A stretch of DNA of 64,000 bases, taken from Candidatus Omnitrophota bacterium (lineage in GTDB: Bacteria; Omnitrophota; Omnitrophia; Omnitrophales; Aquincolibacteriaceae). Positions 42,301 through 57,300 of the stretch are shown here, piece by piece. The notes beneath the pieces are model-generated. The model worked only from the letters and a program-made list of their open reading frames with translations, did not search any database and was not told where the DNA came from. The stretch's first letter is position 1, and every line of letters begins with the position of its first letter. A program made the translations under genes and the position numbers. The stretch spans positions 642 through 64,641 of the forward strand of contig JAKJDL010000008.1 in assembly GCA_022705945.1 (NCBI GenBank), written 5' to 3'.

Positions 42301-45300
42301 GATAGGTCATCGTCGCCGATTCCGGATCGGTCTGGCCCGTAAGCCATTCGAACTCTTTCTGCCCGTAAAATTGTCCCCAGGCCTTTGACTCGCCTCCGTC
42401 AATGCCGGGATATTTCGGTTCGCCCAGATTCAGCGCAACGATATACCTGTCCGCGCCTTCCTGAACGGCAAACCCCGCCAGGCTTTTATTCATGGAACCG
42501 AACCGCCGTCCGTTGGTTTCAAGATAGAAGAAGAGGTTCTGCCGAAACAGGTCGTTCTTGAAAAGCGATTCATACTCTTTGCTGCGGGAATGAATATACC
42601 CCTTCAGGACATTCCCCGATAACGTGACAACAAAGCTGTCCAGGAGCCGGAGCGCCGCAAGGTTGGCTTTCACTTTTTCCAGAAGATCCGTAGCAGCCTC
42701 CGCCCGGGACTTCAGGCGGAGCATTTCCTTATAAAGATCCGGTATCTCTCTCTCGAATCCCTCGAGATAACGGAATATCCTGGCGAAGATATCCTCCTTG
42801 CCGGCGTGATACGCCACCGAACGGTAACCGTCCGCGGCATGAGTTCGTATTCGGCGCGCGCTTTCAACAAAGGCGAGCGGTCCCGGGGGAGCGATCTCAA
42901 GCGCGTTGGGAGATTCATTTCTCCAGACGAATCCGGTATCATCGCCCGCTCTTTGGGAAAGAAACCTCAGAGCGCTTTCGGGAGAAAGCCCCGGCTTTTC
43001 CAGCAGGGCTTTTTCCTCTCCGGATTTTACGACTGTCCTCTGCCAAAGTTTTATGTGCGCCCGCGCCTGGCTTTTTTCCATATCCGCGACGGGAGAGGAC
43101 CGGAGAGCTTTCCATATGAGATCCCGACGCGACGAAGATAACCGGTAGCGTTCCCGGAGTTCGGCAAGGGCACCGGCCAGAGAATCCGCGGACGGCGGAC
43201 GCGCGTTCACGGTCTGAATCTTTCCGTCCACAACGGTATTGAGAACGAACTTGCCGTCGCCCGCCGCGGCGTATTCCACCAGAAAACCATTGGTGATCTT
43301 CCAGGCGCCGGCGTGAAGTTTTCCGGCAAGCTCCTCATAGGTAACATGCTCTTTGAAGATATTCACTTCGCGGCCGGTCGCAGATTCTGTGATTGTGAAC
43401 AGTTCCGGCTCCGCGCCGCCCCAAACGCCGATCAGGGCCGCGCCATTCGGAAGCCCCTTCATCATGCTGGTGGCCGAAGCTTCCAGGATTTCATAAGAAA
43501 GCATTACGCTCGCGGAGATCCCCTGGAAAATAACCGGCGCGACTTCAATGTTGTAGTTCTCGATCGTCGCAAATTTATCTTCAAGGCCAAGCTCCCGCAC
43601 CAAATCCTGGATCTCCAGAAACAAGCCGTGCGCATCTTTGCCGAACTCGCGCCCGCCTATGACCGCCCGGGCAGCGTTCTTCTTGTACCATTCCAGCCTT
43701 GCCGGGTCAGCCTTGAGCGCCCGGAGAACCTCGATCCATTTGTCCGGTCCCTTGTAGGAAACCTGGCGTCGCACGTTGGAAACGATCGGAGTCTTGAGAA
43801 ATTCCCGGCTAAGCGCCTGAACCCTGCGATCCGCCAAAAGCGCGGCCCATTCGTTTTCATTTTCAAGCGCGCCCCGGATACGGCGGTTGAGATCCGCCAG
43901 AAGCCGGTCGCCATAAACCTCCGTGAGCCCGAACTCTTCCCGATACGCTTTCATTGCCTGATCGAACCATGCGGGACGGTTTTGACTTTCTTTAAGCCAC
44001 AGCATCAACCGACCGGTCAAAAAGGCTTTAATGACCTCTGTTCTCTCCTTAAATTCACTCAGAAGAAGTGCCTGGGCAGGTTCGCTGAGCTTCGCAAAGA
44101 GGACCCTGTCATCCGATGCGGGGTCCATCCCGAGCTTCTTTTTATAGCTGTCGGTCAATCCCCGAAGGAGCGGTGACTGCCACTGTTCGAGCAGGACCCC
44201 GTTCGTGCTCCGGAGCCCGTCCTCGTTGTAGCTGTCCACCACATCGGCATAGCCGGGCATCACGCCGCCCGTGACGGCAGGCGTGTGTTCATACAAGGCG
44301 ACCCCGGTAACAAGGTCAAATGTCATCCCCGCCGCATCCGTGACACTGATCTTTCCGTTCCGGACGATATAGGGCCGCAGTGCCCTAGAATATCCCAGCA
44401 CCTCCAGAGAAGCCTCTTCAGGCTGATAGATCGTCGGCGTGAAGACAGAGTGGTTTATGTGATGGTGAAGCGCGTCCGGCAGAAGAGGCGTCGGCAAGCT
44501 GACAAAAACCTCATTGTCCACAAAGAGAATCTTCTTCTTGGCCACTCCTTGCTCCTGAAGTTTCAACGTCAGAAGCTCGGTAACTTTCCGGTAAACCCCC
44601 ATTTGCAGGTCGCGCCAAAGATTGGGGGCTCCATAAGGAGCATCGGGATAAACCTCGTCGAAGATCTGGACCTTCTTTCCATAATCATCAATGTAAAAAG
44701 CCTCGATATAAAAATTCGGCATACCCCCGACCGAAGTCTCGGTCGGATAAACCTTGACCCTGATCTCGCGGTCAACCGCTTCCCGGGCTTGCTGGAGTCG
44801 TTTCCTGTATAAAGCATCGCCGGTCCGGCTGATCCACTCGTCGGCTTTCGTGCGAAACTCATCGCCGGCATCCAGAGAGAAACTCAGCCGAAATCCCGGA
44901 TCTTCGGTCAGAACTTCGCGAAGATAATCCCCCAGCGTCTTTTTGCCGCTCACCACCTCTTCCGGAAGGTCTTTGGCGTAAGCCTGCCCCTTGATCTCGT
45001 CATAGATCACGTTCACGGCAAAGACATCTATGTTCTTTTTTTTCGGAGCTCCAAAATTCTTTTGCCAGGAGGGGAAAAGATCGTGCATCAGGGCTCCTAG
45101 GCCTCCGGTCATCGTAGTGGCCGCGACCAGTCCCGCGATCTCTTCGCCGAACTTCGCTTTAAGCTTTTCCAAAATATCACGCGACAACCCGGCCTCAAGC
45201 TGGCGGGAAATGACAGTATAATTCCCAAGTTCCGGGGCATTCTTCGTCGCCCAGGAGCGCATCTCGGAGCGGGAAGATCTTGAAAAAGCGACGGCGAGTA

Positions 45301-54300: not shown

Positions 54301-57300
54301 CGAGAACGACCTCATGCGTATATTTTTCCGCCCGGCGGGGATCAAGGGAAAAGATGTTTCTCAGATGCAGCTTGCGAACATCCCTGAAAATTTTCTTGAG
54401 CGACCTCCAGGCTTCCGTTTCGGTCGGATCATAACTCGGGAACACCTCGCCTGAAGAAAAATCCTTCTTTCCCGCGGGAATCTCGGAACGGGCTTCGGAG
54501 CGGGCCGCCGAAGATGCTTCAAGTTCATTCTCAAGCAGAGCGGTATCATTCCAGCGAAACGCTCTTCCGTTGATCACGATTTCGCGTTTTCCCTGAGACC
54601 TTGCCTTGACATTGCTTGTGGCGAGACCTTCCAGAAGCTCGCCCCGGCTTGTCGCAAAGAAATTCTTTCCGTCGATCATGACACCGATCTTTCGCGCGTT
54701 CACTTTCCAAACGATCACTTTGCGTGTCTCGGAGCGGGAAACAACAAGATCCGGGAACCATGCGTGGAATTCACCTTCCGTATATTCCCCGGCGGGGTCC
54801 CTGGCCCAAACATCCATATCTTCCGGCGCGGTTAAATGGATGAAATTTCTTCGCACATCAAGTCGTCGCCCTGTCAGACCGAGCGCGGGATCATTCCGGA
54901 AAGCGCGGGCACGCAAACTGTCGGGGTGCTTTACTGCAGCGTCTTTCGGGTCCGTTTCACCTGCAAATTCATCCTTCATCTGCTGGAGCGTAGACGCATC
55001 CGCCGCAAAAGGGTCCTTCTTGAGCCAGATCGCAATGGTAGGCGTTTCGGCCCCGGTAAAATCTTCGGCAAGTGCGGGAAAAAATGCGTTGTAAGCGGGG
55101 ACTGTTTTTCCGCGATAGGCTACCGGAATATAGTCTTCGTCAGGCAAAGAGAGAAGCCCGATGCGAAAAGCCCTGGGACCCTTTCCAAGCTTTTTGACCT
55201 TGCTCATTCCAAAAGGCGCATCCCAAATACTTGCCAGATGTTCCGGCGACAAGCCTGTTTTTTCCATAAGTTCGTTCGCCGAAAACGCAAGCTGGTCCCC
55301 GGGAACAATTTCTTTTGAAAAATCAAGAACCGCCAGATGCTCTTTGACCGCAGTCCGCTCCTCGTCGTTCAAGGCCTTGTCTCCCAGGGTGGCGACTGCC
55401 GCGTGACGAGAATAATGTTCCCCGAGAACATCTTCCCCGCGAATAGTCCCGGCATCCACCACGCGAACGGCATTGGCGAAATAACCGCGTTTTCCGGCCG
55501 CGCCGAGAACCTCGACGATCGTTTTTTCCGTGATCGTCCCGACAGAAGGCTTAATCAAAAGCACGAGGCTGTCTTTCATATCAGGGTCCTGAAGGCGACG
55601 GCCATTCCCGAAATCCACATAGCCGGTCGTTCCCTCCTTATACAATGCGAACGCTTCAGCTGCGATCTTCTCGGCTGTTCGCATTTCGGAACGGTGCTTT
55701 CCGGTCATTATCTGAAACACCGCCAGCCGGGCATTTGGAATATCAAGAGGTAAAACCCGCTTCTTCCCGGACATCCGGGAACTCATTCCGCTTACGGTAA
55801 CCCCCAAGACTCCCGCGCCCGCGCTTCTCAGTTTGTTCAAAAATTCCGGGATTTTCCGGCCCGAACGGGTTTCCGAGCCGGCAGCCGCAGTATCCGTTCT
55901 TGTTTCCGAACGCGCCCAGTCGGTCAGAATGGAACTTAACGCCTTGACATGATCCCCCGTCACAACATAAGACAAACCGCCGCCGTGGGGATTGATCGTC
56001 GCCATCATCGGTTTTTCAAAAACCCCGGCAATCACGCCGTCTGCTTTCATTTGATCCAGAACGTCTTTAGACTTCACCGCACTCTGAGAGTTCGTCCAAA
56101 AAACCACCGGAGTCTGAAACCCGTTCCGGTCAAGCGCCCGCCACATGCTCTCATGCCACCGCGCTTGATCACGACGTCCCGCATAGTCATCAAAACCGGC
56201 CAGAACCAGGTCGAAGGGACGGCTCGCCAGCGCCAGCCAGAGATCTTCCCGCTGAAAAGAAAGGTCGATCGTTTCAATCGTCGCGGCCGGGCTGATAGCC
56301 TGGGCCAGCTGGCGAAGCGACGTTGCGCCGGCTTTTGTATCCGCAACAAGAATTCTTTTGATCCACGGGAACGCATCCATCGAAAGCGGTGTTATATTTT
56401 TCGCCTCCTCTTTTCCTTTTTCGGAAGCCGAGCTGTCACCGCCCTCGCGCGCTTCACTGCGGGTGAGGCCGGTGTCCGGAATGATTTCGATCCATTCAAC
56501 GTTACTGATATCCGGGATCCTCGCTTGCCGGCTCAGCTCATCCACGGTCACAAAACCAAGAACTTCCTTATAAGCTCCTACTGTGATCTGATAAGTGATC
56601 TCCCGGTGCCGAGGACGCACCAGGACAAGGGTCCCATGAAGCGCTTCCTCAGTAACGCCTTGCGCCTTGAGGAAATCCGAGATTTTTCCGCGGCTATCTC
56701 CGATCAACTCTTTCGAAAAGCGCCGTGTCGGAACTTCCGGACGACCTTGTCCGGTCCTGAAGATCTCATCCTCTCCCCTTGTTTCCGAGCGGACAACCGG
56801 AGCTTTTATTCTGGTCAAAAAGTCCTGTGCGGAAAAAAGCCCGTTGGCGCCCTTGCGGCCTCCGGACACAAGCGGCTCCGACAGGAACCGTCCCGCGGTT
56901 TTTCTCACTCCTTGATCCGGATGATTCCTCGCGACGGCTCTGAGCCGGGCACGCACCATTGCCTCGCTTACCTTCTCCCCGCGAACCTCCGAGCGACCGT
57001 CAACCAAACTCCCGCCGTCTCCGCGGCTTAGATCCAAACGCTTCGGACTGCCCGGCGCCCGCAGTGCTTTCCGTGAAGGTCGTGGGGGAGCTTTTTGCCG
57101 AAGTCGAATTTTATCGATTGTCCGCAGCAATTCGCTCCTCTCGGCTTCCGAACCGTTTACTTTTAAAACTTCCCGCTCCGCCGCGTCCAAGGCTTGACGG
57201 ATTCTGGGATCTTCCTGCAGCCCCTCCATTTCGCGGACAACGTCCGTTGCCTCAGACCACTTCCGAGCACCTGCCTGCCTGTCAAGCGCCTTGACCAGCC

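Follow-up and report, generated by a model that had tools for sequence, protein, structure and literature searches.

A giant Omnitrophota open reading frame as a candidate processed polyprotein: R-[S/A]-E-x-R peptides delimit shuffled enzyme cassettes, including a barrel-less dikinase

Bacteria of the phylum Omnitrophota encode giant multi-enzyme proteins of at least 10-147 thousand amino acids (kaa). Those termed 'Archaeovorins' carry S8 and C39 peptidases, glycogen synthase-like domains of glycosyltransferase family 5 (GT5), glucose-phosphate isomerase and 'pyruvate-diphosphate kinase domains', and cleavage of the Omnitrophota giants has been suspected, with the cleavage points called unknown (West-Roberts et al. 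2023, bioRxiv 10.1101/2023.11.21.568195). A later report describes 'multi-enzyme metabolic clusters' together with a community of sugar-metabolism Pfam domains, with PF08323 present in 153 long proteins, and counts 5,761 Omnitrophota ORFs of at least 10 kaa (Nielsen & Lui 2026, bioRxiv 10.64898/2026.06.07.730766). The joint presence of glucan enzymes and pyruvate, phosphate dikinase (PPDK) domains on giant open reading frames (ORFs) of Omnitrophota is, therefore, already known. Here, we analyze one such ORF, 7,155 codons in a single frame from ATG to stop, on the minus strand at 39305-60772 of a 64,000-nucleotide stretch from a Candidatus Omnitrophota bacterium (assembly GCA_022705945.1, contig JAKJDL010000008.1, positions 642-64,641 of the forward strand). 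This whole stretch is referred to as the window, and all positions are numbered within it. Our preferred reading, to which we assign a probability of roughly 0.55, is that this giant ORF encodes a cargo polyprotein that is processed at R-x-E-x-R junctions and not a channelling mega-enzyme.

Compared with the published Omnitrophota giants, to which it is related, the giant ORF is small. Together with two further members of its family in the window, it shares with them the phylum, the S8, GT5, glucose-phosphate isomerase, 'pyruvate-diphosphate kinase', NUDIX, methyltransferase and GNAT domains, and a signal peptide and/or transmembrane (TM) segments; the lengths here are 7.2, 2.4 and 0.7 kaa. 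Archaeovorins are characterized by a gene of more than 90 kb, numerous TM helices, and SecA-DEAD/preprotein-binding and HEAT domains, whereas the present gene is 21.5 kb long and encodes one TM bundle. No Pfam match to SecA-DEAD, HEAT, C39 or dockerin domains was obtained in the giant ORF (E<=0.01) or in the scanned ORFs of the window.

Seventeen R-[S/A]-E-x-R peptides divide the giant ORF into 18 cassettes. An earlier note on this DNA had described positions 43553-54400 (aa 2125-5740) as one fused glucan-metabolism unit comprising phosphoglucose isomerase (PGI), a dikinase, a glycogen synthase and a glucan phosphorylase. Pfam and NCBIfam HMM scans, run on ten segments of the giant ORF, showed that the four modules are real and lie on one polypeptide (Pfam PGI, PPDK_N, PEP-utilizers and Glyco_transf_5, with Phosphorylase below threshold), but they do not form one unit with these limits. 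The right-hand limit, 43553, falls inside the module related to glycosyltransferase family 35 (GT35), 32 residues short of its pyridoxal phosphate (PLP) lysine, K5772, and the four enzymes reside in separate cassettes that are not contiguous. In order of translation on the minus strand, the PGI cassette (aa 2096-2670, 52763-54487), which contains a complete glucose-6-phosphate isomerase, is followed by a 26-aa mini-cassette flanked by two RSExR sites (aa 2671-2696, 52685-52762) and a 399-aa cassette without a Pfam, NCBIfam or Protein Data Bank (PDB) match (aa 2697-3095, 51488-52684). Then come the dikinase cassette (aa 3096-4092, 48497-51487), consisting of a 445-aa helical domain, a PPDK nucleotide-binding domain, a phospho-His domain and a disordered tail that terminates in RSEVR; the GT5-like cassette (aa 4093-5119, 45416-48496), a divergent GT-B enzyme of the glycogen/starch synthase type; a 53-aa mini-cassette (aa 5120-5172, 45257-45415); and the GT35-like cassette (aa 5173-6467, 41372-45256), with a very divergent core of the alpha-glucan phosphorylase type and a C-terminal extension of ~600 aa.

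An R-S-E-x-R peptide stands at every junction among the four enzymes. RSEAR (aa 2091-2095, 54488-54502) forms the upstream boundary of the PGI cassette and RSEVR (aa 2666-2670, 52763-52777) its end; RSETR (aa 2692-2696, 52685-52699) closes the 26-aa mini-cassette, and RSEAR (aa 3091-3095, 51488-51502) precedes the dikinase. The boundary between the dikinase and GT5-like cassettes is RSEVR (aa 4088-4092, 48497-48511), another RSEVR (aa 5115-5119, 45416-45430) ends the GT5-like cassette, and the GT35-like cassette lies between RSEMR (aa 5168-5172, 45257-45271) and RSELR (aa 6463-6467, 41372-41386). The other nine R[S/A]ExR sites, likewise on the minus strand, are at 58928-58942, 56981-56995, 56777-56791, 56447-56461, 55898-55912, 55679-55693, 54722-54736, 41261-41275 and 40028-40042.

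The cassettes are enclosed by two conserved terminal domains that delineate a protein family. The N-terminal module of the giant ORF (aa 1-615, 58928-60772, minus strand) consists of a signal-like peptide (aa ~10-34) and a domain of 560 aa without a Pfam match, hereafter the N-domain, and terminates in RAETR. A scan of one genome per species with a six-sequence N-domain alignment yielded 25 loci, nearly all labelled Omnitrophota or Omnitrophica, in which nearly every copy starts an ORF that extends beyond the 10-kb flank. A metagenome scan yielded four contigs with homologous giant ORFs, including two complete relatives of 4,657 and 5,021 aa. The N-domain is invariably the first in the family ORFs, and a C-terminal domain of ~230 aa (aa 6916-7155, 39308-40027, minus strand, in the giant ORF) closes all complete ones (L006, L008, L013, L021, L026 and L028; L numbers denote loci). 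A profile of this C-terminal domain had no significant PDB sequence match, and the same was the case for aa 2697-3095 and aa 1699-2017 of the giant ORF, in which many other stretches likewise lack annotation.

Two other family members are located in the window. A 2,359-aa ORF (15497-22576, minus strand) combines the N-domain, five R[S/A]ExR sites and an end resembling the C-terminal domain, which terminates in AYSALSSAA, with different cargo, namely, PP2C (by Pfam) and Nudix-, SAM-methyltransferase- and GNAT-like stretches recognized by eye; its similarity to the giant ORF is confined to the first ~560 aa (28% identity, E=1e-49). A 729-aa ORF (61262-63451, plus strand), transcribed divergently from the giant gene, consists of a signal peptide, the N-domain (E=1e-14) and a tail of ~250 aa, without cargo and without RSExR. 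Cysteine is strongly depleted throughout the family: it accounts for 8 of the 7,155 residues of the giant ORF (0.11%), 0.14% of the 729-aa ORF and 0-0.34% of the family ORFs in general, three of which have none, compared to 1.0% in 22 neighboring ORFs, a depletion of about ninefold.

The junction peptide is far more frequent than expected by chance. In the giant ORF, 0.2 occurrences of strict RSExR are expected from composition, and across 30 family ORFs (103 kaa) we counted 229 sites against 6.2 expected, whereas other ORF-like stretches at the same loci contain four in 63 kaa. The family-wide profile is [A/S]-R-[S/A]-E-[V/A/M/L/T/I]-R-[E/A/T/G], with flanks rich in A, S, G, P and E, and lysine never takes the place of either arginine. 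The codons used for Arg, Ser and Glu differ synonymously from site to site, which indicates that selection acts on the peptide. A nucleotide-level signal, be it an internal Shine-Dalgarno sequence with a start codon, a site of recombination or an RNA element, is ruled out by the same variation and by the absence of AGGAG usage. In one lineage (L015:146-11714), RSExR is missing, and 16 copies of R-P-E-[S/A]-[R/K] are found instead, likewise at block ends; such a switch fits a recognition site that co-evolves with its reader. The conserved extreme C-terminus of the family (39308-39331 in the giant ORF, and L006, L008, L013, L021, L026 and L028) contains A-R-S-A, echoing the first half of A-R-S-E-x-R; perhaps the motif is cut internally, or both sequences contain the same recognition element.

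The motif coincides with the ends of homologous blocks. Segments obtained by cutting at the motif align end-to-end with motif-bounded segments of other species, in a different order, and the cassette families are nearly constant in length (973-998 aa for the dikinase in seven ORFs; mini-cassettes of 67, 88 and 189 aa). When the giant ORF was compared by BLAST with the family ORFs without pre-cutting, the distance between block ends and a motif had a median of 7 aa, with 81% within 30 aa, as opposed to 150 aa and 15% for random positions. The contents look like whole proteins; the PGI cassette, for example, comprises a PGI of full length with linkers of ~20 aa. Furthermore, hydrophobic signal- or anchor-like segments occur within 45 aa downstream of the motif in 47% of the cases family-wide compared to 12% (p=3e-6), an example being RSELR followed directly by SFRLLMLAGMVAIASFWTAVSAK, so that many cassettes look as if each were a pre-protein. 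Such segments begin a few residues past the motif at L018 aa 658-690, L026 aa 1917-1945, L004 aa 2491-2525 and L011 aa 642-685, and the S8 cassette of the giant ORF has a signal-peptide-like segment directly after RAETR. In the AlphaFold2 (AF2) model of the dikinase, the tail that bears RSEVR (residues 962-997) is disordered (pLDDT ~30).

The cassette repertoire varies among family members. The 399-aa cassette upstream of the dikinase in the giant ORF is unrelated to the 411-aa cassette that occupies that place in L005, which rules out a larger conserved block around the dikinase. Among 28 other family ORFs, most of them visible only to ~3,900 aa, none was found to contain PGI. GT5 was detected, beyond the giant ORF, only in L005 among the family ORFs (L027 breaks off before that position), and the GT35-like cassette is present in 13 family ORFs.

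Whole-protein cassettes, signal-like segments after the sites and a disordered, site-bearing tail jointly favor the motif as a processing site, and we infer that RSExR directs site-specific proteolytic processing. PGI, the barrel-less PPDK-derived phosphotransferase, and the GT5-like and GT35-like enzymes would thus be translated as one precursor, in fixed stoichiometry, and the cassettes would then act as separate proteins, without substrate channelling. The fusion of the four enzymes is probably not mechanistic, given cassettes that are separable, bounded by a likely processing site and shuffled in order between species. Adjacency in such ORFs would then signify co-expression or co-delivery of the cassettes and not necessarily a joint mechanism.

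The leading candidate for a processing enzyme in cis is the universal N-domain. Its AF2 model (pLDDT 76.5, pTM 0.69) adopts the fold of the TIKI/TraB/EreA/ChaN superfamily, with the endopeptidase RRSP and TraB among the fold matches; Pfam TraB, Erythro_esterase and ChaN had no match in the giant ORF. This superfamily includes the site-specific proteases TIKI and RRSP as well as esterases and a haem binder. H76, E104-G105, E158, R480 and G505-G-F-H508 are identical in 27 of 27 members, including the cargo-less paralog, and H71, A106, E142 and E481 in 26 of 27. Judging from the signature of the superfamily, these conserved His/Glu motifs, of the GxxH type, may correspond to its catalytic positions. 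The 729-aa ORF could represent the 'chassis' in its minimal form, or it could supply the N-domain enzyme in trans.

A second protease candidate is encoded in the next cassette (aa 616-1264, 56981-58927, minus strand), which comprises a signal-like segment (aa 631-652), an S8 subtilase and a TM bundle of ~7 helices (aa 911-1140); by hydropathy, there are no TM-like segments beyond aa ~1140. The subtilase (Pfam Peptidase_S8, 4.7e-17; NCBIfam QhpE/mycosin-like) retains D666, H688, N777 and S840 within the motifs VLDTGI, DHGSIV, AAAGN and AGTSIAS.

Several points weigh against processing as proposed here. The S8 subtilase is unlikely to be the universal processing protease because no homolog of its cassette was found in the 28 other family ORFs, and we know of no described protease specificity that fits R-S-E-x-R. 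The fold family of the N-domain also holds esterases and haem binders, and the N-domain, which is preceded by a signal peptide, might be exported away from the cargo. The topology is puzzling as well: in several complete members, a signal-like N-terminus is not accompanied by a TM segment, and the metabolites on which the cargo enzymes act are cytoplasmic, but the family is Cys-poor in the manner of exported proteins. For the dikinase, the assignment of the acceptor site to the helical domain (see below) is pure conjecture. Finally, the motif could be a hinge or docking site that is not cleaved.

This last possibility extends to an uncleaved, beads-on-a-string scaffold, that is, an intact membrane-tethered mega-enzyme (~780 kDa) or metabolon in which RSExR would serve as a hinge or as a peptide to which a partner, for instance the N- or C-terminal domain, docks. 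The TM bundle of the giant ORF could tether the cargo, and the A/S/G/P/E-rich flanks of the motif resemble linkers. Moreover, peptides of V. archaeovorus map to a single giant ORF and a 'coat' model has been proposed (PMC10066038), and most long Omnitrophota proteins have been read as membrane-anchored (Nielsen & Lui 2026, bioRxiv 10.64898/2026.06.07.730766). However, a mere hinge requires neither the absolute conservation of Arg, never replaced by Lys, and of Glu nor a lineage-wide switch to RPExR; signal-peptide-like segments right after the sites are best explained as new N-termini; and the cassettes correspond to complete autonomous proteins. We consider such a scaffold unlikely.

With regard to localization, the Cys depletion and the signal-like N-termini are compatible with export or with delivery to another cell. 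Vibrio MARTX are large secreted proteins with conserved terminal regions and a variable, shuffled array of effectors that are released by site-specific internal proteolysis. By analogy, the family shares with them terminal bookends and shuffled modules, the effector RRSP is among the structural neighbors of the N-domain, and a low Cys content is typical of exported toxins; as in viral and MARTX-like polyproteins, complete autonomous modules are separated by a conserved short site. Homology is not implied. Neither RTX or glycine-rich repeats nor a CPD cysteine protease was detected here, the site is RxExR as opposed to Leu-x in MARTX, and metabolic cargo with an N-terminal Sec-type signal contrasts with classical toxins and a C-terminal T1SS signal. 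A predatory or episymbiotic lifestyle has been proposed for Omnitrophota (West-Roberts et al. 2023, bioRxiv 10.1101/2023.11.21.568195; PMC10066038). One could imagine the RxExR peptides as cleavage sites of a previously unrecognized family of self-processing exported polyproteins, functional analogues of MARTX, from which the TIKI-like N-domain or a partner would free the cassettes outside the producer or inside prey or host, where these, including the glycogen phosphorylase-like and GT5-like enzymes, PGI and the ATP-consuming barrel-less PPDK, would mobilize host glucan and energy stores. We put forward this extension as a doubtful one.

The coincidence of the junction peptide with the ends of shuffled homology blocks provides concrete candidate cleavage points for Omnitrophota giant proteins. 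In the literature searched, coverage of which was incomplete, neither the junction motif nor the bookend domains, the shuffling of cassettes or the Cys depletion were described. If processing at these sites is real, the same punctuation could permit in silico dissection of the Omnitrophota giants of 10-150 kaa.

Among the cassettes of the giant ORF, the dikinase deserves separate consideration. Pfam identified PPDK_N (6e-18) and the PEP-utilizers mobile domain (5.5e-08), and the C-terminal half of the cassette is colinear with PPDK (EC 2.7.9.1) residues ~8-516 (E=4e-43). The catalytic histidine motif GGLSSHAAVV is conserved and His3996, encoded at 48785-48787, is intact. The nearest database relatives are full-length PPDKs (28-30% identity), in agreement with a Foldseek search with the AF2 model (pLDDT 79.8, pTM 0.80), in which PPDK (1KBL) matched at 2.5e-26 over 542 aligned columns, followed by PEPS (5e-8) and rifampin phosphotransferase (RPH; 3e-7). 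However, the score against the PPDK equivalog TIGR01828, 213.5 bits, is below the cutoff of 843.45. Unlike PPDK, the cassette ends at the point where the phosphoenolpyruvate (PEP)/pyruvate TIM barrel would start, and it has gained an N-terminal helical domain of 445 aa. The barrel-less architecture described in the earlier note is borne out, and the possibility of a barrel missed in that reading was dismissed, since PF02896 (PEP_utilizers_C) was not found in any segment of the giant ORF (E<=0.01), in 18 other scanned ORFs of the window or in L026 and L028, both of them complete. Lacking the barrel, the dikinase alone cannot interconvert pyruvate and PEP, so that either its acceptor is a different one or the barrel is supplied in trans.

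The 445-aa domain is all-helical and well conserved, with no significant structural match. A word-indexed homolog search with this half of the cassette gave no match, and an exhaustive search identified eight relatives among 1.84 billion representative proteins. Seven inspected relatives share the same layout, in which the helical domain, PPDK_N and the His domain are followed directly by the end (by Pfam for six; for P0065, by homology to L017 and the motif sites). One of the eight, P0066 (L030:5864-8809), is a free-standing homolog of 981 aa with its own start and stop, surrounded by PNPOx, ArsC, VWA, PALP and ABC-transporter genes; the seven further relatives are 1,065-2,925 aa long. The combination of a barrel-less PPDK core with a new helical domain thus constitutes a small dikinase family. 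Most likely, the dikinase catalyzes the same initial partial reaction as PPDK (ATP + Pi + His3996 <-> AMP + PPi + His~P), although the use of Pi/PPi instead of water is a guess from PPDK ancestry; the phosphate would then be passed to an acceptor bound by the helical domain as a substitute for the barrel.

An alpha-glucan is a possible acceptor. The earlier note suggested a fused multi-domain glucan machine in which the dikinase, a prokaryotic analogue of glucan, water dikinase (GWD), phosphorylates the glycogen or alpha-glucan handled by the GT5 and GT35 modules. Shared with GWD and PWD are the phospho-His, the absence of the PEP barrel and, in expectation, a non-pyruvate acceptor, and the barrel-less architecture with its intact catalytic His speaks for this proposal. 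GWD has an N-terminal CBM45 (CBM20 in PWD), and its His domain precedes a C-terminal ATP domain. The dikinase cassette, in contrast, has the PPDK order, ATP domain first and His domain second. Its closest relatives by sequence and by structure are true PPDKs, not GWD, PEPS or RPH, and no GWD or PWD entry is among the PDB sequence or structure matches. The conserved helical domain could be a novel glucan-binding domain, but the 445 extra residues are all-helical without a significant match, and no carbohydrate-binding module was found by Pfam or NCBIfam. RPH and barrel-less relatives, such as phenylphosphate synthase, similarly combine an ATP-grasp domain and a C-terminal swivel His with a family-specific extra domain that binds the acceptor; the structural similarity to RPH is distant (3e-7 versus 2.5e-26 for PPDK), and the extra domain here is N-terminal and helical, not an inserted rifampin-binding domain.

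The genomic context of the dikinase is equivocal. The order dikinase-GT5-GT35, with the dikinase directly upstream, is common to the giant ORF and L005, and the GT35-like cassette is present in all four dikinase-bearing lineages seen far enough (giant ORF, L005, L017/L028 and L026). However, this cassette also occurs in about 8 of 19 ORFs without a dikinase, which makes the association weak, and the lineages are phylogenetically non-independent. In L026 and L028, seven and three unrelated cassettes, respectively, separate the dikinase from the GT35-like cassette, and neither has GT5, PGI or another sugar enzyme recognizable by Pfam; the free-standing P0066 has no glucan genes nearby. With probable processing sites at the junctions and a GT5 that lacks the K15 and H161 equivalents (see below), the fused glucan machine appears improbable, and a glucan acceptor as such has similarly low odds; a prokaryotic analogue of starch phosphorylation is speculative.

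The partner enzymes differ in how closely they resemble their canonical counterparts. By sequence, the PGI module is a bona fide full-length glucose-6-phosphate isomerase (Pfam E=4.7e-224 over profile positions 1-486 of 486; NCBIfam equivalog NF001211, 812 bits against a cutoff of 492). The GT5-like module matches Glyco_transf_5 (2.6e-20) and SS4/GlgA structures in the PDB (E=4e-9), with 124 bits against TIGR02095, below the cutoff of 328, and has ~250 aa of insertions along with N- and C-terminal extensions. The earlier note named a lack of catalytic residues in either glycosyltransferase module as a refuting outcome; both modules are highly divergent, with most of the characteristic residues present. 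GT5 retains HNL..YQG, NG(I/V)(D/E), R..QKG (the R300/K305 equivalents) and FEPxGL (FEPCGL in the giant ORF, with E4916 equivalent to E377). However, alignment to SS4 and to the E. coli GlgA sequence indicates that, in both the giant ORF and L005, K15 (KxGGL) is replaced by Gly and H161 (HDW) by Asn. Given these replacements and the insertions, canonical ADP-glucose glycogen synthase activity of this cassette is uncertain. In L005, the Cys of the FEPCGL motif is replaced by Gly.

The GT35-like module is even more divergent, scoring 21 bits against 27 for PF00343 Phosphorylase (E=1e-4), and 25 against 191.7 and 18 against 552.9 for TIGR02093/02094. Nevertheless, all PDB matches of a 12-sequence profile were alpha-glucan phosphorylases (best E=2.9e-6), aligning EASxTSxMK with the PLP lysine, and GGLG, TNG..W and this lysine (K5772, codon 43457-43459) are invariant in the 12 family sequences. 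The cassette is probably an extremely divergent PLP-dependent enzyme of the GT35 type. No PGM, GlgC or GlgB is recognizable, leaving the glucan pathway incomplete.

Less probable than a glucan-directed dikinase is an ordinary PPDK that has been split, with a different cassette or gene providing the barrel in trans. The descent of the core from PPDK is clear, at the 28-30% identity given above, and interconversion of pyruvate and PEP is the role annotated for such domains (West-Roberts et al. 2023, bioRxiv 10.1101/2023.11.21.568195). Judging from the domain layout, this published reading does not hold for the barrel-less family: the barrel was not found in any of the ORFs searched for PF02896, the seven inspected helical-domain relatives stop right after the His domain, and the family has acquired a conserved domain of 445 aa in its place. 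An artefact, whether a mis-assembly or a read-through pseudogene that joins independent genes in frame by chance, has only the unusual length in its favor and is refuted by a 21.5-kb frame without stops, by homologous giant ORFs that share bookends and motif across 25 genomes and four metagenome contigs from independent studies, and by a motif peptide that is conserved despite synonymous variation.

The last 47 nucleotides of the giant ORF (39305-39351) are shared with the start, as listed, of the downstream ORF on the same strand (38293-39351, TTG start), which encodes an MqnA-like protein of the futalosine pathway of menaquinone biosynthesis. A split transketolase, with the N- and C-terminal halves encoded by adjacent genes, is located at 34204-35969 (minus strand), adjoined by genes for a gamma-glutamyltranspeptidase and an M24 peptidase. 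At 5545-13138 (minus strand), Mrp/complex I-like membrane subunits are encoded together with fused 30-kDa/49-kDa (NiFe hydrogenase-like) and 20-kDa/ferredoxin subunits, which suggests a complex of the group-4 energy-converting hydrogenase type, in keeping with an anaerobic lifestyle.

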